DNA of 62,724 bases, the filler included, from Hausera hauseri (taxonomy: Eukaryota): assembly GCA_046269625.1 (NCBI GenBank). It is 11 parts of 11 records of this genome, joined end to end, with 100 filler letters (N's around TTAATTAATTAA, not from the genome) between each part and the next. Parts side by side here need not be neighbours in the genome. Positions count along the whole stretch, not along the records: positions 55,995 to 62,724 come from JBJURY010071439.1; 10 more parts are not named here. One strand, written 5' to 3'. Below the pieces are notes generated by a model. The model saw only the letters and a program-made list of their open reading frames with translations, was not told the DNA's origin and made no database searches. The number at the start of each line of letters is the position of its first letter. The first letter of the stretch is position 1. Shown here piece after piece: positions 22,686-62,724 of this stretch. Made by a program: the position numbers and the translations under genes.

Positions 22686-23065
22686 CTTAGAGTCTCACAC
22701 TCCACGAAGAAAACTCAGAGACATAGGAGGACCGTTCTCTGAGCACCCCAGGGGAATGCCCCCGAGTACGTGTGAATTGTACGAATATTGTTTTATTGTG
22801 TACTAACCACCTATTTTTCTCTATTTTTACTGCAGTTTGATTTAGGCCACATCCAACTATTTACCCAGCTAAAAGTGATAAGTATACTCAGCTCAGTGAC
22901 TGTTAAAATTACTTCTTATAATCCCAGATGAAGTAAAGTATATTAACAAAGTGTTATCTTGTGTTTATTTTGTGTTAAAGGTACCGCTTGCCTGGCTGAC
23001 TGGTGAGGAACTGCTGTGTGTACCATTTCATCCATTGTGTGCAGCTCTAGCATAACATTAGCAAA

Positions 23066-25081
23066 ATGTGGTGGCCACCAAAACCTGTGGTGATAGGAGT
23101 TGGTGTTTTATCAACTATCGTGCTATCACTCATTTTCTCTCTTGAATATTTCTGCGTGATCCCAGGTCTAAAGAGTTGCAGGGCCACTGTGGCGAAACGT
23201 AGAGAGAAACGAACTGTGTCCCCATTACAAACGCTGAAAGACTACTATGGCAAGCCCATATTAGACGTACAATATCCCAGAGGCTCCGCCACCACCCTGA
23301 AACTGTCAATTTGCAGCATGTTTGACTGCAAGGACTCACGTATCACGCACGCAAACTTCTACATTTGCCCATGTCCCCACCCAACTGGCTGTCGCTTCTG
23401 TGAGTGGACAGATGTTGTTCTGTACTCAGGTTCATGGGTTCCAACTATGACTGCATATCCTCCAAAATACGTAAGTTGGTGGAAAAACAATGCCACCCTA
23501 ACTAAGGGTGGAAATGATTTGCTCCTCACTCTCAAAAGAGTTGACAAGTGGTTTAAAATGACCTATTTAGGCTCTGGTGACATGGACTTCAATTTTGTTA
23601 CTGATCCTATGTCGGTACTGATAGCTGCGGAAGTCACTAATAGAGATCCCATACGAGTGTTACAACTCTCACTCACTGACGAACTTGAATCAGACACTTC
23701 TACAACAACTACGGCCCCTCCGTCGTCTGCCCCCACGCCTGTAAAAATGCGCATAGACAGCGTCGATTACACCAGTCTGACACCTGTGGAGGTAATTACT
23801 ATGTCTACAGGATACTCAGAGTCTAACATTTGGTTGGAGTGGCTCGCGGAAGCTGCAAGACAGGCTTCTTTATCTGAGTGTGTTGCTTGTGCAGCAGCTC
23901 GACCGACCTTGTATACCCAACCTGCTCCACTAGTTCCACAGGACGAGTGGGGATTTCAGTGTATGTTGAGTTTGACTAGAAAACGACAGAATAAGAACTG
24001 TACCACATTAGATCAATTGTTCCCACTAATCTCCAATAAAACTAAACTAGGTTCATTTACGCCCGCAAAACGACATGATTATTATTGTTTTAACTTCACC
24101 TCCAACAGTACTAACCAGATTGATCTGGGACAAATACAGCCAGACTGGTGCAACATTACACAGCAGAATGGTACCGACAACACCCGAGTGGGTAAGGTTG
24201 CACGTGCTGAATTATATTACTTTTGTGGAGGTAGGCGTCTGCTCACTCACATCCCTCAGGATTCTGTTGGCTTGTGTGCGATGGTACGATTGACTGCTTC
24301 CTTAACATTGATTGGCCCTCGGTTGGAAGTCCTGAATGACACCTCCAACCAACACAGTAGAAAGAGACGCTCGACACACAACTTTGATCCTACTGTTGGT
24401 TCACCAACATACATTGATGCCATCGGAATCCCTCGGGGAGTTCCTGATGAGTATAAATTAGCAGATCAGATTGCAGCAGGCTTTGAGAATATACCTGTTG
24501 TCTCAGCATATTTCCCAATCACCCCCAACAAAAATGTGGACAGGATAAATTACATACATTACAATGTGATGCGTTTATCTAATCTTACCAGGGATGCTGT
24601 GGAAGGCCTAGCTGAACAACTCGCCCCCACTTCACTGATGGCTGTGCAGAACAGAATGGCTCTTGATATGCTGTTAGCAGAGAAAGGAGGTGTGTGTAGC
24701 ATGTTTGGTGACCTTTGTTGTAGTTTCATTCCTAATAACACTGCCCCTGATGGAAAAGTGACCCGTGCACTTGAAGGTTTGAGAACGCTGTCTAATGAGA
24801 TGAAGTCTCATTCAGGGGTAGGTAACTCTTTTGATGATTGGCTCCTCAGTGTGTTTGGCCCCTGGAAGCAAATGATTATATCCATGTTAATGTCAATCGC
24901 AGTATTTGCAGCTATCTTGATCACATGCGGATGCTGCTGCATTCCGTGCTTGAGATCTTTGTCCGTGCGCCTCATCACTTCCACCTTAGAGAAGCGTGAT
25001 CCAGAAATCACCCGTCAACTTCTCATGCGCAAAGGCTATAACTTAGAGGATTTTGAGATGACCCCACGTTGCCGTACATAG
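23066..25081 (+). CDS. env: Intact gamma-type retroviral envelope glycoprotein of a fish-type ERV
   Basis: N-terminal hydrophobic segment, CVAC (CXXC), furin site RKRR, immunosuppressive domain AVQNRMALDMLLAEKGGVC, CX6CC, TM helix, CCCIPC; 671 aa with no stops. Confidence 0.95.
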   Translation: MWWPPKPVVIGVGVLSTIVLSLIFSLEYFCVIPGLKSCRATVAKRREKRTVSPLQTLKDYYGKPILDVQYPRGSATTLKLSICSMFDCKDSRITHANFYICPCPHPTGCRFCEWTDVVLYSGSWVPTMTAYPPKYVSWWKNNATLTKGGNDLLLTLKRVDKWFKMTYLGSGDMDFNFVTDPMSVLIAAEVTNRDPIRVLQLSLTDELESDTSTTTTAPPSSAPTPVKMRIDSVDYTSLTPVEVITMSTGYSESNIWLEWLAEAARQASLSECVACAAARPTLYTQPAPLVPQDEWGFQCMLSLTRKRQNKNCTTLDQLFPLISNKTKLGSFTPAKRHDYYCFNFTSNSTNQIDLGQIQPDWCNITQQNGTDNTRVGKVARAELYYFCGGRRLLTHIPQDSVGLCAMVRLTASLTLIGPRLEVLNDTSNQHSRKRRSTHNFDPTVGSPTYIDAIGIPRGVPDEYKLADQIAAGFENIPVVSAYFPITPNKNVDRINYIHYNVMRLSNLTRDAVEGLAEQLAPTSLMAVQNRMALDMLLAEKGGVCSMFGDLCCSFIPNNTAPDGKVTRALEGLRTLSNEMKSHSGVGNSFDDWLLSVFGPWKQMIISMLMSIAVFAAILITCGCCCIPCLRSLSVRLITSTLEKRDPEITRQLLMRKGYNLEDFEMTPRCRT

Positions 25082-32649: not shown

Positions 32650-35600
32650 ATGTGCAAACTCTACAGAGATTGCATGGCTCAAATCCATGAGCTTGAAAAT
32701 TGCCACAATATTATGAAGAAGTATTTCAGCCATATGTACAACGGGGTTCAGTATTATATATGCCCTACATGTGAAGTAGTGTGCCAAACCAATTATGAAG
32801 ACTTTTACAATGTCCATAAACAGCACTTGATTTCCTTCACAAAGTCGAAAAACAAAAATTCAGTACCAATATGCCAATAATGACTTTCGTGCCAAAGGAA
32901 AATCAAAGATGCAGTTTATATGTGTACTGCACATGTGCAATACACAACCCTCAAAATTGCCACAATGCCATGAGCAGCTATTATTGACACAAGTTTAACA
33001 GGATCATTTATTATATCTGCCCTGGATGTCAGGCTGTATGTGATGGAGAATACATACAGTTTTATAAAGATCACAAACATCCTTTGACTGACTTTGCATC
33101 AAAGTCAAAGAAGATCATCTTTAATGAACATAAGCCAGTTGCACAGCCCGCAGTACCACAGCCTTCAGTACAGCCATATGCAGTATTAAAACGCATATCA
33201 GGCGCATCAGGCGCATCAGGCGTACCGGCTCCATCAAAGAGTCAAAGAAAGCGGCCAGTTGATGCTGCAACATTAAAGACGAAAGTTCCACAAATATATC
33301 ATTGATGCAACTGGTCAAACAACCATGAAGGAGTCCCTGGAGTACACAGACGAAGAAACAGAGGGAATTCTCCAGGATAGCATAGCTGAGCTCAATGCCA
33401 TTAAGACTAATATGAAACTGGAGACCATATAGTCAATGTTGATGGCGAAGAATCCAATAGAGCCTTCAAGACCAGAAATAGACCTATTTTTGAAGCCACG
33501 AATATAGTAGAATGGCTGCATGAAGAGCATGCAAAGCTTATCCGTGAAGCCGATGAGAGTCAGGATAAGAAGGGTGGATAGACTCTGGCAATCATCAAGA
33601 GATTGCCTGTGTATGTTCACGAGTACTCTCCCATGCGGGGCAGTTCTTATATTCAGCTTCCGGAATGGATCGCTAATAAAAAATCATGCATCAATGTCCA
33701 TAATAATGACAACAAGTGTTTCATGTATGCCATTCTATCAAAACTCGTACCAGATCATAAACATGCAGCGAATCGAGTTTGGCTATATAATAATCTGAAG
33801 CACAACTATGACTTCCAATGTACCACATTCCCTCCATCCTTACATGAAATTAAGAAGTTCAGCCGAATCAACAACATATCCATTAACATCATTGGATTAG
33901 ATAATGAGGACAAATTTTATCCCCTGCAGATATATGATACTAAATTGGAAGATCATAAGGATCTGTTCGTACTAGACGATGGAGACAAGAAACATTATGT
34001 TTGGATCAAAAATTTTGAGCGTCTAGTCAGATCCCAAATTACAAATCATCATGGATAAATAAAAATATGTAAACGATGTTTATCTCATTTCATTGGTGAT
34101 ACAGCAGTGAACAAGCTTGCAGAGCACAAAATGTACTGCAACAACAATTACTGTGTAAGACCAGAATTGTCCAAGGGGAACTATATTGAATTCAAGGAGT
34201 TCGAGAAGATCAAGGTCCCAATAGTGATCTGTTGCGACTTTAAGGCTATTCTCAGGCCAATTCACAGCTGCACTCCCAGTGCTCAACATAGCAGCACAAC
34301 GACATACCAATATCATGAACTCTCATCGTATTGCATATATGCCAAAGGACTGGACAGTGAACCATTTTTATTCAGGGGTCCATGTACAGCATCATATTTC
34401 ATGAAACGACTTAAAGACATGGCTCATAGGCTTGGAAACATGCTTCAGAAGCATAAGGATAATATGAGCATGTCGTAGAAACAAGCTGAAGAATGACGCA
34501 AGGCAACAACATATTATGCTCCAAATCATTCACCAAGGATAATCATAAAGTCAAGGATCATTGCTATTTTACAGTAACATATCGGGGCGCAGTATGCAAC
34601 AACTGCAATCTGCGTTGCAAAACATGCATATATGTGCCTGTAGTGTTTCACAATCTCAGTGACTATGATTCCCACTTCATTGTTCAGGAACTGGGCAACA
34701 CTGATAGGAACATTGATGTCATTCCCAATAGTGAGGAAAAATACATCACTTTTACCAAGCATGTCGGCCGCATTAGACTTCGATTATTAGAGAGCTTCCG
34801 CTTTATGAACTCGTCACTGGATAGTTTAGTGAAGAACCTCCCTGCAGAAGACCGGAAGAAGACGAAGCGGTTCTTCCCTACTACCCATCCTTATGACTAC
34901 ATAACTTCATGTGAAACACTGAATGAGACTTCACTGCCGGACAAGAAGGACTTTTACAGTATCCTCTCTCATTGTAATATCAGTGATGCTGACTACCAGC
35001 ATGCTCAGAATGTCTGGCATGCATTCAAATGCCGAACATTAGGGGAATACAACGACATATACCTCAAGACGGACGTTCTGTTGATGACAGATGTCTTTGA
35101 GAGTTACACGGATGTCACAATGAAGAGCCATGCTTTGGATCCGGCTCATTTCTTTACGATTCCAGGGATGAGCTGGACAGCTATGCTGAGATATACCGGC
35201 ATAAGGCTGCAGATCATTAAGAATTACTATATAATCCTTATGATCGAGAGAGGAATTAGAGGCGGAATATGCCAGGCCATTCACCGGTATAGCGAGGTCA
35301 ACAACAAGTATGTGGCCCAGTATGATCCGTCCAAGGAATCCTCATATATATCATACATGGATGTCAACAACTTGTATGGATATGCATTGAGCGCCCAATT
35401 GCCGTATGATGACTTCAAATGGGTCGAGAATCCTGAAACCATCCCTATATTGGACTTGGATCCCACCGGAGATACGGGATATATACTGGAGGTGGATATG
35501 GAATATCCGGCTTTAATCCACGCAAGGCATCAACAGCTGCCTTTCATCCCTGAGTAGGCATCCGCCCCATAGAAAGCAGAGAAAGCTGCTCTGTCAACTG

Positions 35601-41039: not shown

Positions 41040-41590
41040 CCATCGCTGGTTCGTCCACTCGTTGGAGTCAGACCGGGGCTGATCACCCAAAAACCTGTCA
41101 CGGTATTTCCTCAACCTCCACCAGGCCAGTCTGTGAGTCGAGGACGGCTACTGCTCCATTGAGAGGACCGGCCGTGACTGAATCCGATACCGAAGAGACT
41201 GAGAGAAACAACTAACAAGGTAATTAAACCTTTCTACTAAATTGTAAGTCCTACAAAAAGGACTGAGTGTAAAAGCCCTATATTCGAGAAAAAAATAAAA
41301 ATAAAAAAAAGGGAAGGGCTGAGTTTAAATTGTAGGCCTTTGGCTAAAGGCTGAGTGTAGGTCCATATATTAGAGAAAAATAAATAAGAAGGACTGAGTT
41401 TAAATTGTAGGTTTTCGGCGTAAAACCGAGGGTAGGTCCTGTTGGAACTGAGTTATGACGTCATAATTGAAGTGTAGGTTTCAACATTAAAAAAGGACTG
41501 AGGTGGAGAAAATTTTTATTTCATAAAAATCTTCTCCAGCCCACCATAAAACACCACCATATATTTGGAATAAAATTACTTTGTTCTAAA

Positions 41591-43645
41591 ATGGGTGGTT
41601 ACCTTAGGAAACACGGAGATGACGATTATATACCTTTTGGGCCCATTATAGACCTTATGAGAGAAAAACACGGAGAGACATGCATTTCTTTTTTGCCACA
41701 ATGGCATAATAAATTAGGTTTTCCTAAAAATGGCAGTCTAGACCCGGCTGACATTCAAAATCTGGAGGAAAAACTAATGAGCCAAAAGCAGAAAATGTTA
41801 AAACATAACAAAATATCTCGCGACCAGCTGGTCACTGAGTGCACATGAGGATGCTTTTAGACCCTGCTTTTAGACTGTGGAAAAATATGTCTTTAATTCA
41901 GCAATCCAAGGTCCACACTATGATTCAGATAATAGGGAAAACAGATTCAAAAATACAAGCCTTAAAAGAAAAATTACCTGATGAAACTAATCCGTCTGTT
42001 TTTTCTTTTCCATCCCCCACACCCTCTCATGCTCGAGCCCCATCCAGGCCCTCGGCCCCTCCAGCGGCTCCTAGTCTGTACCCCTCTCTCACGGGACTAA
42101 GGCACGATCCTCCTCCACCCTACGAATCTCCCACCCCATCCAAACCATCTCAGCCAACACCTAAGCCACGAGGAGGGCCACTCAAAATCCTTTGGCAGTG
42201 TGAGGGAGATGATGATTACCAGAACTGTGGGGATACATCTGACCGCCCTCTTGGTCAGGTTCTGGCTGTTCCAGCTCTCCCACAACAGCAACCAGATCCG
42301 CCTGTTAATGAGCAGCCTGCCCCTTCCACCCCAGGGTGATATAGCTGCAGCTTCAGGCTCCACAGTTCACTCAGATCCACCATCTTCCAACCTCAGAAGC
42401 AAAAAGGTAAAAACCCATGAAGAGTATGAAACTGAACTAAAAAACAAAGAAGCAGAACTAATTGCCCTTCAGAAAGAAGTAGCTAAAGTAGAGGCAAAGA
42501 GAAAAAGAAAACAAAAATCCAAACAAGACCAAGAAGAAAGGCTAAAGCAAGAAGAGGCTGTTGCCTGCCAGCTCCTGAAAGACCTTCTTCTGACCAAGAT
42601 CCCACCCCCATCAGACACTGCCCAAACTCCCCAGCTCCCCGTCGACACCCCACCTGAGGACACCCTCAGTTGTCCCATGGTTGAGGTAGGGGGCCCGCAG
42701 GGTGCACAACTAGTCCTCCGCACCTGGACCCGTATCGAACTGGTAGACATGGCGAAATCCTTCCTACCTGTAGTAGAACAGGGGGGCACAGAAATTGCAA
42801 AAGCCCTGGACACAATGTGCCACACCATGCGCCCCAGCACTGATGAACTGAGGGTTATCTTTGGGTCTGTTTACGGGGTGGGGTTCCTGTCAACTTTGGG
42901 CAACGTTTTTGGGGACGACAATCTTGTCCTTAGAAACATTGATCTAACTCACGCCTCAAATGATGCTTACAAAACAGTTCTCACCGCCATTAAAACCGCT
43001 CTAACTGACAAAATAAAAAAATGCCCCAAAATGAATTTAGTCAAAGTCTGTAAATACCAACTTGGTGATGTCCCCGCTGAATACTATGCCAGACTGAAGA
43101 AACTCTTCGACGTCCATGCTGGTCTGACTGAGCCTAGAAATGAATGGCTAACAGATGCTGACCCTGATCCCTATGAAAGTCTCCTAGCCCAATGTTTCAT
43201 GGATGGTCTGCCACCAACTCTTCAAGCTGCTGTAAAACTCACCTACACCGGCTGGGATGACGGCCTTCGCATGAAAAAGCTCCTTAAACACACAAAACAC
43301 GCTGTGGCCACCCAATCCCTCGCCAAAGAAGAAGCTGAAACAAAAAAGAGCTGCCTCCAGGAAGAAGCCCAGCTGACCCTGGTCCAAGCAGCTTCCACTT
43401 TCTATCAAAATGACCAGGGCAGGAGCCAAGGCCAAGATGACGCCTGTTTTATCTGTGGAGCTGATGACCACTGGTCCAGAAACTGTCCTGATCGCCGTCC
43501 CAGTCGCGGCCGAAGAGGCCGAGGGGGACCACCCAGAGGCCGTAGCTACAACAATAACAACCAGGGCTACAGAGGACAAAAGGGAGGATCCTTTCGTGGG
43601 GGTAAGAGGGGAGGTGTGCCCCCTTTTAGAGGTCAATCTTCATGA
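41591..43645 (+). pseudogene. gag: ERV gag, two frameshifts (about 41840 and 42330)
   Basis: MG myristoylation start, PSAP/LYPSL/PPPY late domains, CFICGADDHWSRNC Zn knuckle, RG-rich tail. Confidence 0.9.
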
Positions 43646-46600
43646 CTACAGCCGCTGGACGGACTCCAAGGACTCCAGCCCCTGATGAGTATCGAAATAC
43701 ACCCACCTAACACATGTTACTTACAATATTCATCCTCTGCTCATTTAAAGCTCCCTATGCTAACTGTACAAGTTCAAAACACACCCATTGATTTTCTTGT
43801 AGACTCAGGAGCCACTCAATCTCTCATTAAACATTCTTGTTTACCTGGAGCACCCCTCTGTGGTCGTACAGTCCACTCCACAGGTGCTTCAGGGGAAACT
43901 GTTCCTGAGCCAGTAACTTCACCACTCTCTTTAACAGACCATTTTTAAAGAAAATCAGACCACACCCCCCAGATGAGTGGCAGTTTGTCCAAGATCTCAG
44001 AGCTGTTAATGCTGCTGTACAACCCCGTGCTCCCATTGTCCCCAATCCTTATACTATCTTAACTCAAATACCTTCTTCTAGCACTTGGTTTACAGTTATT
44101 GATCTAGCTAATGCTTTTTTCAGCATCCCTATGCACCCTGACAGCCAGTTCTGGTTTGCTTTCGAGTTTAAAGGCAAGTCTTATACATTCACTCGCCTGT
44201 GTCAGGGATACTGTGAATCTCCTACCATTTTTCACCAGGCTTTGAATGATAACCTTGCTTCTTTTTTCCTGCCTGCAGGATCTGCTCTGCTCCAATATGT
44301 TGATGATCTCCTCCTTGCTGCACCCTCCAAGGATGAGTGCATCACCCAGTTTTTCCGTCTTCTCTCCTTCCTAGCTGAAAATGGTCATAAAGCATCAAAA
44401 TAATAAATAATAATAATAAATAAGCTCCAATTTGTCCAACCAACTGTTACATTTCTGGGTCACGTCATCTCCAAAGAGGGAAGGGCCATAGCTCAACCTC
44501 GTGTTGACGCTATTGTTTCACTGCCTCTTCCCAAAACTAAAAAACAACTTATGTCTTTCCTAGGTCTGTGTGGGTATTGTAGGCATTTCATTCCATGTTA
44601 TGCTGAGTTAGAAACCCCATTAAGAGAAGTATGTCATGACAAGGGGTTACAAATGAGCTCACATGTCAACTGGACTGCAGCTGCCATAAAAGCCTTCGAA
44701 GCGCTCAAAATTCAATTACAAAAAGCACCCACTCTTGGTATTCCAGATCCAACTCGTCCTTTTGTGCAGACGGTGGATGAGAAGTGCGGTTGCATGACTT
44801 CTGTTTTGCTCCAAAAACATGGCGACAGATTGAGACCAGTTGCTTATTTTAGTTCTAAATTGGATCCTGTTGCAGCTGGCCTGCCCCACTGCCTTAGAGC
44901 CGTGGCGGCCGCGGATAAGGCTGTAACAGCATCCCGAGACATTGTGGGTTATTCTGATCTGACCCTCCTCGTTCCCCACGCTGTCACCCTCATCCTCAAC
45001 GAACAGAAAACCGCTCATTTATCTACTGCTCGTTGGTTGAGGTATCATGCTAGCTTATTAGACATGCCTAACATCACCATCCAGCGCTGTAATGTTCTTA
45101 ACCCTGCCTCTTTGCTCCCAACACCTGAGGACGGCCAACCTCATGACTGTGTTGCTGAACTTGACGTCATCTGCTCACCTAGACCTGATCTACAACAACA
45201 TCCCCTTGTCTCTCCAGACTGGGAACTCTTTGTAGATGGCTCCGCCTCTCGTGACCCCCACACTGGCTCCGCCCTGTGTGGCTATGCTGTTGTGACAGCT
45301 TCTGAGGTCATTGAAGCCCACCCCCTGTCCTCTTGTTCCGCCCAAGCCTGTGAACTTATCGCCCTGACTCAGGCCTGCATTTTGTCTTCTGAAAAATCTG
45401 TAAATATTTACACTGACTCTCGTTATGCTTTTGGTGTTGTTCATGATTTTGGTGCCTTATGGAAACACAGACGTTTCCTTCGGTCAGATGGCCCATTTTA
45501 AATCACCTTCTAGTCTGACCTCTTAGAGGCCATTATGCTCCCGTCCCAAATTGCTGTTATAAAATGTTCTGCCCACACATCTTCTATAGATCCTGTTTCT
45601 TTAGGAAATGCATTTGCTGACTCTACAGCTAAATCTGCCGCCCGACTGACCACTGACCTACTCTTACCACTACTACCCTCTGACCCACCTCTCTCATTAT
45701 CTGATTACAGAAGTTCTCCACTCCTGCTGAACGCTCCTCCTGGAAATCCTGTGGCTCCTCCTTCACTGACTCCATCTGGATTGGCCCTAATGGTAATCCA
45801 TAAACAATTTTTTTCCCAGCTTTCGCCGTTTTGACACACGGTCCTGACCATGTGTCAAAGGGAGGAATGCTGAGGGTCATTGATAAACACTGGTTCACCA
45901 TAAATCTTTCAAAAACAGCAAAATCCTTCTGTGACTCCTGCTTAACATGTGCTACACACAACATAAGCAGAGGTCAGAAATTAACAACACAAGGAGCACA
46001 TAAGCCCACCTGTGTTCCTTTCCAACACCTAATGATTGATTTTATAGAAATGACCCCAGTGGAAAATAAAAAGTATTGTCTAGTTATGGTTGACATGCCA
46101 AAGCAGTTGCTAAATGTCTGCTCACAGATGTAATCAGCAGATGGGGTATTCCCCGCCGAATCAGCAGTGACAATGGACCCCACTTTGCAAATCAGATAAT
46201 GACTGAAGTCTCCCAACTACTAGACATTGATCTAGCAAAACACTGTGCCTACCACCCTCAGAGTGGTGGTGCAGTAGAGCGTGAAAATGGAACATTAAAA
46301 CTGAAACTAAACAAAATTTGTTCCCACACAGGTCTCAACTGGGTCCAAGCCCTGCCTATTGCTCTCATGTCCATGAGAATGAGGGAAAGAGCCAAACATA
46401 ACCTTTCACCTTTTGAAATCCTTTTTGCAGGACCGCCCAACCTTGGTCTGGGCCCACCAAAAGACCCTCACAGCTGTCTCACCACATGTGATGACAAAAT
46501 GCTCCAATACTGCATTGAACTAACAAAATCTTTGACTTCTCTCAGGAAAAATGTTCAAGGAGGACAACCTGGACCAGCACAAGAATCGTTGCATTCTATA

Positions 46601-46760
46601 CAGCCTGGAGATTTTGTTATGCTTAAAAATTTCAGGAGAAAGCGGTGGAACAGTCCAAGGTCCCTTCCAGGTCCACCCACACCGCTGTGAAGGTCGCTGA
46701 ATGAGCCACTTGGGTCCACGCCTCCCACTGCAAAAAAGTTCGGGACCAGCCCACCATCAT
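43646..46760 (+). pseudogene. pol: ERV pro-pol (protease, RT, RNase H, integrase), defective
   Basis: FLVDSGA; VQDLRAVN, YVDD; FVDGS, IYTDSRYAF; H..H..C..C, SDNGPHF, HPQSGGAVEREN. Deletion at about 43945; (TAA)n insert at about 44400. Confidence 0.93.
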
Positions 46761-55994: not shown

Positions 55995-56463
55995 CTTTCC
56001 ATTGTACGTGTACTGCCCGAGAGATAATTGTTATCGGCCTTTCTATTGCGCTACAGCCAGCCCGAGACCCTATACGATCGGTCCCGCTGACTTAAACTAT
56101 GTAAATTGTCGATTATAAATCTGACTGAAATTTAATGTAGCCGAATGGCTCAAATTGAAATAAAATGAAATAATTATATTTAAATAATAATAATAATAAT
56201 ATTAATAATAATATTTTAATAATATTAATAATAATGATAATATTTATATATAAATTATAAAATTTTTGAATTTTTTTTTTTTTTTTTAAGAGCCGAAGGT
56301 CATCCTTCGAGCCAGTCACTTTTCCGGGGGAAGCGGGCTCTAGATCCACATGCGGAGCTTGAAGCCAGCACCGGAATAGGATTTTAATTAATTAACTTAG
56401 ATGTTTTTTCGCTTATTAATTTAAATGTATTTTTATTTATTTATTTATTTTATTTATTTTTAG

Positions 56464-56910
56464 ATGATAAATTTTGAGCAGTGCATTAGGATATGGAAAA
56501 TATTTAATTCCTTGCAACGGGATGTGTTGCATAGAAAATTAATATGGTGTCGTGGACAGCAGGAACGTTTCGAGGATTTGGGTAGGCGCATGGAACAAAG
56601 AAGGGATGAAATTTGTGTTTTGTATTGTGGATCGCGGGATACCGATTTTTTAGATTTGTATAATGAGATTCGTGGTGCTATAGCGGAGTTAAGGCAGTGT
56701 CTTGCGGAATTGTTGGATCGGATGGAGTCTTATCGTCAAGCCTTGGAATATTATTGTTTATATGTAGATGGGGAAACCTATTACTACGAAAACACGGATG
56801 ATATTTTAGAGTATTGGAATGGGCTTAGCACGGAGGAACAGGTGAAGTTGTTACGAGAGCATGAGCGACGTATAATAGACTTGCAGCATGATTTAGTATG
56901 GAATATGTAA
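56464..56910 (+). CDS. 148-aa acidic, probably helical protein of unknown function; likely the last exon of a spliced gene
   Basis: Preceded by a T-rich tract and TAG acceptor; TATAAA at 56114; AATAAA at 56920. Confidence 0.65.
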   Translation: MINFEQCIRIWKIFNSLQRDVLHRKLIWCRGQQERFEDLGRRMEQRRDEICVLYCGSRDTDFLDLYNEIRGAIAELRQCLAELLDRMESYRQALEYYCLYVDGETYYYENTDDILEYWNGLSTEEQVKLLREHERRIIDLQHDLVWNM

Positions 56911-56935
56911 ATGTTTTATAATAAATGTTTATGTG

Positions 56936-57002
56936 TGTTATTTTTTAATGTGGCCGACGCCGGTCTTAAGCCCGGGTGAAAAACACAGAAAGGAAAATAA
57001 CA
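56936..57002 (+). ncRNA. Twister ribozyme (P1 type)
   Basis: P1 TGTTATTTT/AAAATAACA; U^AA cleavage site (56946/56947); P2 TGTG/CACA; GC/GC pseudoknot; P4 CCGG/CCGG with loop TCTTAAGC; TCTT/AAGG pseudoknot; conserved GA. Same layout as the rice twister UAA-P2-GCC..CCGGUCCCAAGCCCGG..GAGGG. Confidence 0.88.
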
Positions 57003-57008
57003 TATATT

Positions 57009-58241
57009 TTATTTGAATAAAACATTATCACGAATTGATGTTAGTATTCGTGTTATTTCTGGGTCATCGTAATTGATGCTCATTGAAAATTTGATCGGAC
57101 GTATTGTGTTGATTAGTAATCGTCGTACGAAGAATGAGAGGTATTGACGAAGGGATTATAACACTTTTGTAAAGGCCTCTTATTGATCTATTATCATTCT
57201 GGTGATTACACTGAATGATACTGAGGAACGTATCTGGCGGTGTGTCGTGAAATCCTATGTCATCTAGGACGACGAGGTCGTATTCACCTGTCCAGTCCAC
57301 TGGACAGTCGTGTAGTGAGTGGAGAATTAATGGGTTGTTGCCGTGTGATAAGGCAAACGAGGTTTTGCCGATATTTGAGGCAACAAATATGATCGCTGAG
57401 TTTATACCTCTGTCTGGTTGAAATGTAATTTTGTCAATTAGAAATTCTAGATCTCTTCTGGGAACGTATCTTTCCCGAAATTTATTCCTGACGTAGGTAC
57501 ATAAGAGCTTGTTCCTGGTGACAAATTCGGCCCTGTCACCCTCTTTCATTATTTCTAATGCCTCATTGGCTGATTTGGCATCATCGAACATCCGGTATAC
57601 CGCCTTTCTGCTGGTGTTGTCCCGGAGTACGTTAAAGGGCGGTACACCGAATTGAACGACAGTTGCGCCCTCGAAGGTGGGCTTATGATGGTATAGGTAG
57701 ACCTGTTAAATTAATAATAATATTAATAATATAAATTTGTATACTTTTTGTATGTCTTCTCTAAACGGTAAGATGAAAGCTCCCAATATCTTCCACATCG
57801 TTCTCATTCGATATGGTTGTGGTGTATGAATGAGAACGTGTAGATGCTTGTTACCTCCTTTGGATAATTCCTCTTGGAGGCGGATGAACCATTTGTGTTT
57901 ATAGTGCATTGGGAGGTAGACTGATTCAGCAAAGTATCTTCCTGTGAAATCTTCATCAATTTTGTGTACAAGCATGAAATGTCTGAATGTTGCTGATCTG
58001 GGAGGCATAGCAAGTTTATTAATGTCTTCAGTAAATTTAGATTGTAATGAATCAAGGATATCTTTGTCAAATGCGTTGTCCGGGAACAACGGGATATCCT
58101 TTTCAGTAAATACATGAAAATTTCTGCGATATTTCCTTTATTTCAAAAATTAAAATTTAAAAAAATATCAAAATGTACCTTTCATTATTATCTACATGCT
58201 CATTAGGTTGTACCATTTGTCTTTCTACATAAACATTGTCC

Positions 58242-58243
<2 letters not shown>
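57009..58243 (-). CDS. rep: CRESS-type Rep (HUH endonuclease + SF3 helicase), three exons: 58243-58179, 58135-57745, 57702-end; 3' deletion/frameshift
   Basis: FMLV (motif I), QEE..G.KHLHVLI (II), YHHK (III), VASNIGKT (Walker A, first G lost), VVLDDIG (Walker B), FVRRL arginine finger in a shifted frame ending at 57009; GT-AG introns. Confidence 0.85.
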
Positions 58244-58272
<29 letters not shown>

Positions 58273-58603
58273 TAAATATATTTTTAAGTTTTTGGCTCAA
58301 AAAGTAGTAAAAGAGTTTTCAATATGAATTGAGCCGGCTCAAATTGTATATATATTTGTTGAAAACAAAATGAGCCGGCTAGAAAATGCATTATGTGTGT
58401 GTAAAATTATCTGCAGTTGGTTACAAAAATTAATCAATAATGTTAAGTAGTTTCCGCGGCTGTAATTAGCCTGCGGTTCTCGGCTATTACATGCAAATGA
58501 CTGACAGCCACTTAAGTGGCCACTTGAGTTTGTGTGTAGCTACCGCCGATAATTAGACTGCGTTTATCGGGCAGCTAATGCACCGGACTTTCCATTACTA
58601 ATG

Positions 58604-58844
58604 GATTTATGCACGAGTTTTCTGGAGGCAAATGATTGTTTGGTTTGATAAGGTGCAAAAAATCTGTCATGGCTTCAATGATGTGATGTGTTTTCAGTAG
58701 AGACCGCATAAGCGTATTGTAATTGTCGGTTATAGATTTATTAGGCATATAGATTGAGTTAACGAAATAATCATTATTTATAACTGACAACCGCGTATGT
58801 GTGTCTGGTATGTGTTGGGCTTGTCTAATTAAATTAGCACTCAT
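58604..58844 (-). pseudogene. 5' part of an unknown ORF, truncated next to the CRESS unit; paralog at 62285-62724
   Basis: 58604-58716 is identical to 62611-62724. Confidence 0.65.
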
Positions 58845-59278
58845 ATCAGAACAAATAAGAAAAAGAACAAAATTATATTCAATATATACAACATGTACAA
58901 CACGAGAAAATGAGCATGCAAATGAGCACCAATCACAACGTCACGTGGTGATCAATGCCGAAATCAACATTCAGGCTATTAACTCCATTACCCCCAGGGG
59001 CACTATTCATATATTCTGCATCATTTCCCGTATTTAAGAAATCGACCTGTGGAGCAACATAGCACCTTTCACTGCACATGTGGAAAGGGTTCAAAATTTC
59101 GTTATATGTCGGACGATAATCAACCGGAACAAAAGTTGGCGTATTTAAAACACTCAATTCGATGGTCATCAATAGAAGAAATCTGATCCGGAATATAAAT
59201 ACTCAAACCCTGCGGTAAAACAGTGCTATGAGCAACATTAGGTACACTGGATTGAGACTGAATCTAATTATAATATAA

Positions 59279-60396
59279 TTATAAAAATAAAGAAATAATT
59301 AAAACCTGATTATAATTTTTTGCTAATTGCCTGAAGTCCACCTTGTTCTGACTTAGGAAATCATCTCTACTATTTCCGGTTCTATACAACATAAAATCAC
59401 CTAGGTCGTACAACAGGCACCTCTTTAAACAAGCCTCTTTGACTGAGGTCCATACGTCTGGACCATTTTGTTTACACAAAGAAGTAAATCCATTCGATCA
59501 TTCATTTCTTGTACATCTGTCAATCCGTACAACAGAAGAACGTCACGGAAATCTTCGATTTCGTACTTTTCTAACATTTTATCAATATTCTTCGTCCAAA
59601 AGATTATGCCGTCGGCTAGCAATATTCTTCTTTCCATATCCCATCTTTTGTTATTTTTATATTTCTAACGACAAAGGAACGGATTCTTTTGGCTAAATAG
59701 ATCCATATAAATTATATGTCAAAGAATAAAAAGTATATTAATTTGGTCTAACATTTGTATGTTCTCTAAATAATTTGGCACCCATGACATATTTCAGTGA
59801 TACTATCACACAATCCTCAGTAAATATGTTTAATTAAAACATGATTTTCATTGCCTTAATAGATAGTTGCAATGAATCCGATGAAATATTTTATTTGTTA
59901 AAAAAACGCTTAATTTGTATTATTTGGAATTCTACTCAATAGGTCTTGCCTCATCACATAAAATTGACGACATATGAATTGCATCAGTTTGTGCGGCCTT
60001 CCAAAGTTTCTGACATGGTTTGAATATACATTTTCATATGTATTTCATGGGATTGAATTACATCATGCGGTAATTTTGGAACCTTCATGAATGCTTCTTT
60101 TCTTTTCTGTTGGTGAATTACTCGGTGCAACAGATTATTTTTAACCATTTTGTTTACACAAAGAAGTAAATCCATTCGATCATTCATTTCTTGTACATCT
60201 GTCAATCCGTACAACAGAAGNNNNNNNNNNNNNNNNNNNNNNNNNNNNNNNNNNNNNNNNNNNNNNNNNNNNNNNNNNNNNNNNNNNNNNNNNNNNNNNN
60301 NNNNNNNNNNNNNNNNNNNNTGTATTTCATGGGATTGAATTACATCATGCGGTAATTTTGGAACCTTCATGAATGCTTCTTTTCTTTTCTGTTGGT
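59279..60396 (-). pseudogene. Duplicated fragments of an unknown ORF around a scaffold gap
   Basis: LLYGLTDVQEMNDRMDLLLCVNKMV occurs at about 59464-59538 and 60145-60220; 60040-60113 repeats at 60321-60395. Confidence 0.55.
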
Positions 60397-61010
60397 GGCA
60401 TCACAACGGACTTGTACAAACCCCTAATGCTCCTATTATCATTAGGATGGTTGCACTGAATAATAGAAAGGAATAAGTCAGGACGACGTCACTGAATCCG
60501 ACATCATCAAACACTAACAAATCGAATTCGCCACTCCATTCAGGAGTGTCGTGAAGCGAATGGAGAACAAGAGGGTTAGATCCGTGACTAATAGCATAGC
60601 ATGTCGTCCCTATATTTGAACTACCAAAGATAAGAGCGCTATTTACACCGCGATTAATATCAAAAGCTATAGGAGGTAACGTAAACACAAAATTATTAGC
60701 CAAACACACCTTAGGTCGAAATTCCGCACTTACATAAGACGTTAACATCTTATGCCGAGTTACAAATTCAGCGCGATCGCCATCTTTCATTATTTGCATG
60801 GCGTCGGCTACAGTTGGGGCCTCATCAAACATCCTATACAAGGCCTTCCTACTAGTGTTATCCTTCGTTATATCTATCGGAGGGACCCCAAACTCAATAA
60901 CAAAAGAATTTAAACTAACTTGTTTGCAATGATACTTATAAACGGCAAAAACATCATGCCGAAAAGGTATTACGTATTGTAAATCAAAAACAGCTTTAAA
61001 TTGGGACAAT
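60397..61010 (-). pseudogene. rep: Second, divergent Rep copy, truncated at both ends and intronless
   Basis: FGVPP..DNTSRKA.YRMFD.A..DRAEFVTR.K, GSSNIGTT, LLVFDDVG, then frameshifted FLSIIQCNH.NDNRSIRGLYKSV. Confidence 0.85.
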
Positions 61011-61135
61011 CTCAAATGCAAACAAAAAACATTAAGGAATTTTCGTCGTAAAGGAAAATTTCAAACTGTCACAAGATATTTATATAAGAAATAGGCAGAT
61101 ATGTGAAATTAATGTTAATTAATAATACGAAAGAT

Positions 61136-61957
61136 AAATGAAATTAAATGAATATAACATCTTTACCACTATTTTCATGGCTACTTCCAGCAACTGGACT
61201 AATCTAAAATTATAGCGGTTATTTAAATAATAACAATGTGAAAAAATATAGTAATGAAATTAAATTAATATTACGTCTCACTTTTCATGGCCACTTCCAG
61301 CAACTGGATTAATCTAAAATTGTAGCGGTTATTTAAATAACAATAATATTAAAAACAGAAATGAAATTAAATGAATATAACCTCAACAACTATTTTTGTG
61401 GCCATTTCCAGCAACTGGACTAATATAAAATTATAGTGATTATTTAAATAACAATAATATGAAGAGAAATGAAATTAAATGAATATAACCTCTACCATTA
61501 TATTCATAGCCATTTCCAGCCACTGGACTTATCTAAAATTATAGTCGTTATATGAATAATAGTAATATGAAAAAAGATAGAAATGAAATTAAATGAATAT
61601 TACTTCGACCACTATTTTTATGGCTATTTCCAGCAATTGGACTAATCTAAAATTAGTGGTTATTTAAATAACAATATGAAAAATGATAGAAATGAAATTA
61701 AGTTAATATAACCTCTCTACCGCCATTTTCATGGCTACTTGCAGCGACTGTACTATCTGAATTTAGTGTTTATTTAAATAAAAATAATATGAAGTAAGAT
61801 AGAAATGAAATTAAATGATTATTACCCCTCTACCACTATTTTCATGGCCGCTTCCAGCAACTGGATTAATCTAAAATTAGTGGTTATTTAAATATCAATA
61901 ATATGAAAAAAGATAGAAATGAAATTAAATGAATATTACCTCTCTACCACTATTTTC
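61136..61957. repeat. Imperfect tandem array, about 110-120 bp unit, 7 copies plus a partial
   Basis: AAATGAAATTAAATGAATA..CATGGC.ACTTCCAGCAACTGGA.TAATCTAAAAT repeated. Confidence 0.92.
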
Positions 61958-62284
61958 GCGCAACCGATATACATAGGGCTAAACATAGCAAAGGCTAAAC
62001 ATAGTCACCTTGTTTGATATCACCTTGTTTCATGGCCCCTAGGTTCATATTATGCTAAGCACTGTGCTCAAAAATCTCCTCGAAGATTCTTTTTTTTAAT
62101 TAATACTGGGATAACAGATAATGAGCATGCATGAAGAATGTACAAATGTCGAGGATAGTCTTTGTAATAATGTGAGGTATATTTATTCTACATCACTGAT
62201 GATCCGAGCATCTTCAGGAATCGGGATCGTCAGATGACATGGGTAGTGTTTCATTTAAGTCTGCTTCTAAACCGAGGAATAGAG

Positions 62285-62724
62285 TTAATACCAATCATTA
62301 AGGTAACCTTTTATATCTGATGGTTTGAATACTTCAATGCACAGAGGACATGGATTATTGTGTAATTTCGATTTACGGGGGCAATAAGTGTCGGATACAT
62401 TCATCAGAGCTTTGTATAAATCATTGCATATCTGACTTTCGGAATGTAGAACAATAGTAGACAATCCAATATCTGTTGTTGTTACAATTCCATTAAGTTG
62501 CATCCTTACAGGCATGCAATCTTTAATTTGACATTCATCTGCTAACCTGGCATAAGTATTTAACTGATCGAAATTCAGATGAGATAAATCCTTTGTTAAC
62601 AGTGTCACGTGATTTATGCACGAGTTTTCTGGAGGCAAATGATTGTTTGGTTTGATAAGGTGCAAAAAATCTGTCATGGCTTCAATGATGTGATGTGTTT
62701 TCAGTAGAGACCGCATAAGCGTAT
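62285..62724 (-). CDS. Unknown protein, 5'-incomplete, with a C..CPLC motif
   Basis: 143+ aa frame; its N-terminal part can be inferred from the copy at 58604-58844. Confidence 0.5.
   Translation of the reverse strand, partial: TLMRSLLKTHHIIEAMTDFLHLIKPNNHLPPENSCINHVTLLTKDLSHLNFDQLNTYARLADECQIKDCMPVRMQLNGIVTTTDIGLSTIVLHSESQICNDLYKALMNVSDTYCPRKSKLHNNPCPLCIEVFKPSDIKGYLNDWY

Follow-up and report, generated by a model that had tools for sequence, protein, structure and literature searches.

The 2.6-kb unit and its two converging genes

The window, that is, the whole 62,724-nt stretch of DNA that was analysed, consists of contigs joined by N-spacers, and the element described here lies in the last of them (55995-62724). 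The element unit measures 2,593 bp between two 9-nt direct repeats (at 55995 and 58588) and contains a 148-aa ORF on the plus strand and a three-exon Rep gene on the minus strand (Table 1). Its terminal arms can pair with each other: the duplex of 55995-56050 with 58536-58603 reached -18.4 kcal/mol, a value as good being found in none of 500 shuffles, and the best partners of the left arm among 639 windows of the contig were all located at 58511-58628. The contig runs on beyond the right 9-nt repeat, and none of the sibling contigs listed from sequencing run X1, a comparison that covered 55995-58130 of the unit, spans the junction.

Table 1. Features of the 2.6-kb unit, with positions in the window
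Feature	Position	Strand	Basis
Left 9-nt direct repeat, first bases of the contig, left unit end	55995-56003	+	9-mer found elsewhere in the 62.7-kb window only at 58588
Left terminal arm, candidate half of a replication-origin stem	55995-56050		Complementary to right arm
148-aa ORF, possible last exon	56464-56910	+	Splice-acceptor-like tract just before it
AATAAA poly(A) signal of the 148-aa gene	56920-56925	+	Sequence
Type-P1 twister, 14-bp P1, no P3 or P5	56931-57007	+	Rfam match, helix reading, folding, descriptor, phage comparison
AATAAA overlapping the TAA at 57011-57009	57008-57013	-	Sequence
48-codon open frame, off-frame with helicase exon	57012-57155	-	Frame reading
Rep exon 3: YxxK motif III, oligomerisation region, SF3 helicase	57067-57702	-	Profile E 2e-34
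Break in Rep copy	57133-57136		Loose ends of sibling contigs at 57133 and 57136; frame switch
Rep intron, predicted 42-nt GT-AG, frame kept	57703-57744	-	Sequence
Rep exon 2, HUH endonuclease region, HLH motif II	57745-58135	-	Pfam Gemini_AL1 E 0.006
Rep exon 1, predicted (ATG at 58243), and 43-nt GT-AG intron	58136-58243	-	Frame-consistent with exon 2
Right terminal arm, with second 9-nt direct repeat (58588-58596)	58536-58603		Complementary to left arm

The predicted product of the minus-strand gene is a CRESS-type Rep that joins an HUH endonuclease to an SF3 helicase. Both exon 2 (E 3e-6) and exon 3 are matched by a profile built from 74 relatives, the helicase has a Walker B motif and a Walker A motif that differs from the relatives at one conserved position, and the first Atlas match is a Cressdnaviricota helicase cluster (0.95). 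The relatives are distant. That is, a search with exon 3 returned 100 proteins that are 22-36% identical over the matched stretches (at most 35% among the best 60 of the 100), the top ten of which are encoded on contigs of 1.3-2.9 kb; among 32 aligned relatives, 18 match Viral_Rep and 12 match Gemini_AL1_M. Word-based protein searches with exon 3 gave no relative, and single-protein locus searches found no related locus in viral contigs, metagenomes or plasmids.

The Rep copy itself is broken near its C-terminus. The first-pass annotation had noted neither this break nor the defined ends of the unit and its apparent lack of a capsid gene. It had placed the Rep stop at 57009, but the frame of the helicase exon already stops at 57064-57066 and the stop at 57009-57011 belongs to a different frame. 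The match to the profile of relatives ends near 57124, the 48-codon frame closed at 57009-57011 was not detected by this profile, and sibling contigs from run X1 stop matching at 57133 and 57136, coming from opposite sides. We infer that the 48-codon frame is probably the natural C-terminal tail of Rep, and that the AATAAA overlapping its stop likely provides the poly(A) signal at which the Rep gene naturally ends.

The 148-aa ORF is predicted to be mostly helical (pLDDT 67.8, single-sequence structure prediction). A fold search with the model gave no match at E<=0.001 and no viral fold, and the ORF had no relative in word-based protein searches and no usable match in the ESM Atlas. The element therefore seems to be capsid-less, its only partner ORF being 148 aa long, helical and without a viral fold match, although an upstream exon is possible. 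The two predicted GT-AG introns of 42-43 nt, together with the AATAAA signals, would point to a eukaryote nucleus, and the 2.6-kb unit is likely of eukaryotic origin. Upstream of the 148-aa ORF, a GC-rich island (56%; 56288-56385) lies between two AT tracts; it folds with a z-score of about -2.2 on both strands, has no Rfam match and is possibly a 5′ exon or leader. Related short motifs, seen by eye, are present upstream of both genes, to either side of the unit ends (56139-56157, 58329-58346 and 58371-58389), and could be sites of Rep binding or promoters.

Like the CRESS-DNA viruses (Cressdnaviricota; e.g. circoviruses and mastreviruses), the element has a Y1 HUH Rep with SF3 helicase and a size of about 2.6 kb, and, as in two-way CRESS genomes, its genes converge on a small intergenic region that contains their poly(A) signals. 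It differs from them by having no capsid-like gene, by its two very short predicted introns, by a Rep whose identity to the proteins found does not exceed 35%, by the ribozyme in the gap between its genes, and by the canonical nonanucleotide, NANTATTAC, which is absent from 55995-58603 whereas 26 of 42 relatives contain it. The element would thus be a CRESS-like replicon in which two features of CRESS membership, a capsid gene and an NANTATTAC stem-loop origin, are apparently missing. Replitrons are eukaryotic and also combine a CRESS-related Y1 Rep with short terminal direct repeats, but have no helicase as they are described in PMC10288648, whereas the element has both an SF3 helicase in its Rep and a converging partner gene; despite the terminal direct repeats, the helicase rules out that the element is a Replitron.

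A twister sequence in the gap between the genes

The gap between the two stops is 98 nt long, of which 77 nt are occupied by a complete type-P1 twister sequence, on the same strand as the 148-aa gene. The twister begins 6 nt past the plus-strand AATAAA and finishes 1 nt short of the minus-strand AATAAA, so that 20 nt and 1 nt of the gap remain on its two sides. The location between the convergent 3′ ends of a Rep gene and its partner ORF was thus correctly recognized by the first-pass annotation, the partner being a CRESS-type Rep. Read from the sequence, P1 (56931-56944/56994-57007; 14 bp with two G-U pairs), P2 (56949-52/56984-87), P4 (56960-63/56972-75) and the pseudoknots T1 (56964-67/56990-93) and T2 (56953-54/56970-71) all pair, i.e. 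five helices out of five including both pseudoknots, and the core bases and U-A cleavage site of 56942-56996 agree with the Rfam consensus line. This bears out the annotated presence of every pairing and conserved nucleotide of a P1 twister; the annotated span of 56936-57002 was too short, as P1 extends to 56931-57007.

A search with Rfam twister-P1 (RF03160), suggested as a check at the outset, matched 56942-56996 (+) over the whole model, with an E-value of 3.3e-6 (computed over 8.7 kb x 4227 families), but the score of 40.2 bits is 27 bits under the Rfam gathering score of 67.2; no Rfam family reached its gathering threshold anywhere in the whole 62,724-nt window. The P3 region of the model is nearly absent from 56931-57007. 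A strict helix-plus-core descriptor, run on both strands of the 62.7-kb window, found the twister as its single site, and a lax descriptor matched in none of 300 first-order Markov resamples. On the plus strand, 56920-57010 folds with a z-score of -3.39, equalled in 0 of 200 shuffles, and on the minus strand 56936-57002 folds with a z-score of -1.49. Compared with eight phage twisters (chosen by a zero-mismatch descriptor, so that their 100% pairing is by construction), the element twister has 23 invariant columns in common with all of them, and its A-U-rich P1 and T1 pairs represent double-sided changes.

The element twister has the full set of helices of type-P1 twisters (RF03160), the two pseudoknots included, as well as their invariant core and U-A cleavage site, and differs from them in its A-U-rich T1 and P1, the 14-bp P1 and the score under the curated cut-off. 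The minimal form without P3 is shared with several phage twisters. The predicted cut between U56946 and A56947, as given by the first-pass annotation, is retained and falls 21 nt past the AATAAA at 56920-25.

An alignment search yielded 42 distant viral CRESS loci, which are 21-46% identical. The screen of related Rep loci that had also been proposed was negative in all 42 of these, both with Rfam and with the helix descriptor (the bare P4 core alone occurs in two), and positive in one sibling contig of run X1. Pattern scans recovered many phage twisters, none of which adjoins a Rep. The scan with the twister core pattern found at least 126 viral stretches, and among those listed a Rep match was seen only at the mastrevirus-like L120/L129. 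Many of the stretches L001-L126 are phage contigs in which twisters, either P1-type or apparently permuted, immediately precede genes; some of these contigs have two or three twister copies. In L129, the 17-nt P4/L4 core of the twister (1152-1167) lies in a long hairpin of the small intergenic region, on the Rep-sense strand. This mastrevirus lead was abandoned, as the core is present in only one of two genomes (L129, not L255) and L129 scored 16.4 bits with E 0.77. Patterns of the A-U-type pseudoknots, found in 74 viral and 9 metagenome stretches, were judged by eye to be chance matches, none of them being a full twister or accompanied by a Rep.

Run X1 contains half of the sampled words of the element. 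It is possibly the source sample of the element, so that the siblings found in this run do not form an independent sample. Among 46 aligned contigs of this run, 13 are >=99% alike to the element and 14 are <90% alike. Contigs identical to the element copy have a depth of about 4-6, the depth over the twister is 14 and over the left arm (55995-56050) 125, and diverged contigs with Rep and the left end reach 115-165. Differences in exon 3 fall mostly at third codon positions (31 of the 38 listed, from 40 of 105 rows), which indicates that the Rep family is under purifying selection. One sibling contig spans 56894-57024, twister included, with about 87% identity, 15 substitutions and two gaps, both in the outer P1 arm; the first 77 bases of this contig, which face the ORF, do not fit the element. 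Judged by overall likeness, this hints that a diverged sibling may have retained the gap with its twister. At 85% likeness, the sibling Rep contigs of greatest depth (115-165) do not align on the twister. The element belongs to a divergent, multi-copy Rep family that has no close relative in the collections searched and is marked by the twister.

Known twisters are located in phages, bacteria or retroelements, and a Rep-encoding element is an unusual home for one. The literature searched contained no report of a twister in a CRESS virus or Rep element, although subscription papers and supplements, which lay outside its scope, could list such loci; ribozymes in anelloviruses are speculated on in PMC11071296, with no twister. 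The ribozyme class is known; its combination with a divergent CRESS-like unit was not found in this literature.

Predicted self-cleavage and polyadenylation

The reading that we favour, although we see the case for it as evenly balanced, is that the twister cleaves transcripts of the 148-aa gene that read past the poly(A) signal, as an element-borne fail-safe similar to that of HDV. It is supported by the Rfam match with all pairs intact, by the strand and spacing of the twister relative to the poly(A) signals, by the sibling contig that spans the twister and by the selection on the Rep family. Normal poly(A) cleavage takes place 10-30 nt after AATAAA, and would split the 5′ strand of the twister from the remainder. 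Conversely, the twister would be foldable only after the RNA polymerase has reached 57007. Polyadenylation and self-cleavage would thus be mutually exclusive alternatives acting in the same window. The twister cut would sever the coding RNA from a tail antisense to Rep, and, in a two-way genome as compact as this one, could thereby keep down antisense RNA that is long and capped. A parallel is the antigenomic ribozyme of HDV, which is located just after a poly(A) signal and for which polyadenylation and self-cleavage are described as alternatives (PMC2396440). HDV differs from the element in being an RNA circle with another ribozyme class that cuts 33 nt after the poly(A) site (PMC2396440), whereas the element has a DNA genome and a predicted cut inside the expected poly(A) window.

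Among the three functions proposed in the first-pass annotation, formation of the mature mRNA 3′ end would be the weakest, because ribozyme cleavage leaves a 2′,3′-cyclic phosphate (PMC6765202) and a canonical AATAAA already points there. Nor would the removal of antisense read-through RNA be automatic, since a 5′-OH RNA end is a poor substrate for Rat1/Xrn2 (PMC2702688); this resistance weakens simple read-through removal and keeps alive a role in making unit-length RNA. It also counts against the fail-safe reading that the locus itself may be dead, as its Rep copy is broken. Further points against it are the Rfam score under the cut-off, the lack of a twister in all 42 distant relatives and the deepest sibling Reps that do not align on the twister. 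Whatever its role, a twister placed between two poly(A) signals in a gap of 98 nt would offer a sharp and cheap test of self-cleavage versus polyadenylation in a DNA element. In the accounts of PMC8501958 and PMC6765202, twister ribozymes have almost no assigned natural function.

The first alternative, which we consider unlikely, is that the twister is a passenger, i.e. a working or recently working ribozyme that came from a host repeat or retroelement into one sub-lineage and is of no use to the element. Twisters are abundant in some eukaryote genomes, where they are linked to non-LTR retroelements (PMC8501958), and such an origin would agree with its absence from all 42 distant relatives and with the failure of the deepest sibling Reps to align on it. 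However, no carrier sequence, tail or target-site duplication was found in the 98-nt gap, and the twister abuts both poly(A) signals so closely that no room is left for a retroelement carrier. Moreover, its orientation and spacing suit the poly(A) signal, and its region is retained, by overall likeness, in one diverged sibling. A ribozyme-bearing retroelement of the SINE, retrozyme or Perere-3 type was rejected, as no carrier, tail, target-site duplication or adjoining reverse transcriptase was seen in the gap or in the contig 55995-62724; there is no tRNA in the window.

A second alternative, which appears doubtful, is that read-through all around a circular or tandem form is cut by the twister into 2.6-kb monomers with 5′-OH and cyclic-phosphate ends, which a host ligase would close into RNA circles, as for HDV, the Varkud satellite and retrozymes. 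In line with this, the unit ends are complementary and share a direct repeat, as would a circle opened at its origin, and 5′-OH ends favour read-through (PMC2702688). Ribozyme products are also ligatable, and a small DNA plasmid is known to follow the same logic (PMC6765202). The Varkud satellite of Neurospora is, like the element, a small DNA with a self-cleaving ribozyme in its transcript, but it is mitochondrial, reverse-transcribed and without Rep (PMC6765202). On the other hand, the element encodes an HUH Rep and an SF3 helicase with which it can replicate as DNA, it lacks a reverse transcriptase, its circular form is assumed, and neither Rfam nor the pattern search revealed another ribozyme on the opposite strand. 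Equally speculative is the idea that, in a capsid-less, intron-bearing CRESS-like family, the twister acts as a switch at the poly(A) site, read-through leading to unit-length, possibly circular RNA of a rolling-circle DNA replicon; if true, this would link ssDNA viruses with viroid-like RNAs.

It is very unlikely that twister and Rep were brought together in an assembly chimera, or by a recent rearrangement, with the join near 57133-57136. The departure of the sibling contigs from both sides of these positions, the low depth (about 4-6) of the contigs identical to the element copy, the tail frame of 48 codons that the Rep profile does not recognise, and the 100-N gap and duplicated ends further on in the contig would all fit such a join. 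Nevertheless, matching unit ends flank both genes, the unit size and two-way layout agree with the relatives, and the AATAAA overlaps the tail stop, as expected at the Rep gene's own end. Finally, the least probable explanation is that the stem-loop matters as ssDNA, e.g. near a site of complementary-strand priming, its likeness to twister being incidental or ancestral. In mastreviruses the primers do map to the small intergenic region (PMC10653810), where the hairpin of L129 contains the same 17-nt core. However, a DNA hairpin needs neither two pseudoknots nor cleavage-site bases, the other parts of the ribozyme are missing from L129, the core of L129 is on the opposite strand with respect to Rep when compared with the element, and the second mastrevirus, L255, has no core.

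Other features of the window

The remainder of the contig (58604-62724) contains a second Rep-bearing segment, near whose Rep neither Rfam nor the pattern search found a ribozyme. Over 137 aa, this second Rep has 56% identity to the first; it has a frame shift near 60490 and is truncated at about 60400. The segment is bounded by an exact 114-nt repeat, which an ORF seems to cross, as would be the case for a 4-kb circle or tandem unit. A short ORF in the same segment (59428-59664, minus strand) has a weak likeness to residues 91-116 of the 148-aa ORF (35% over 26 aa, pairwise E 0.009). In other contigs of the window, frames at 23051-25081 and 41471-46690 are presumably retrovirus-like env, gag and pol, and 33582-35557 resembles what we take to be a Polinton-type DNA polymerase. 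Upstream of the second Rep, a 110-114-nt unit is repeated in tandem about 7.4 times (61136-61957); four of the copies contain NANTATTAC-like words, with one exact TAATATTAC.
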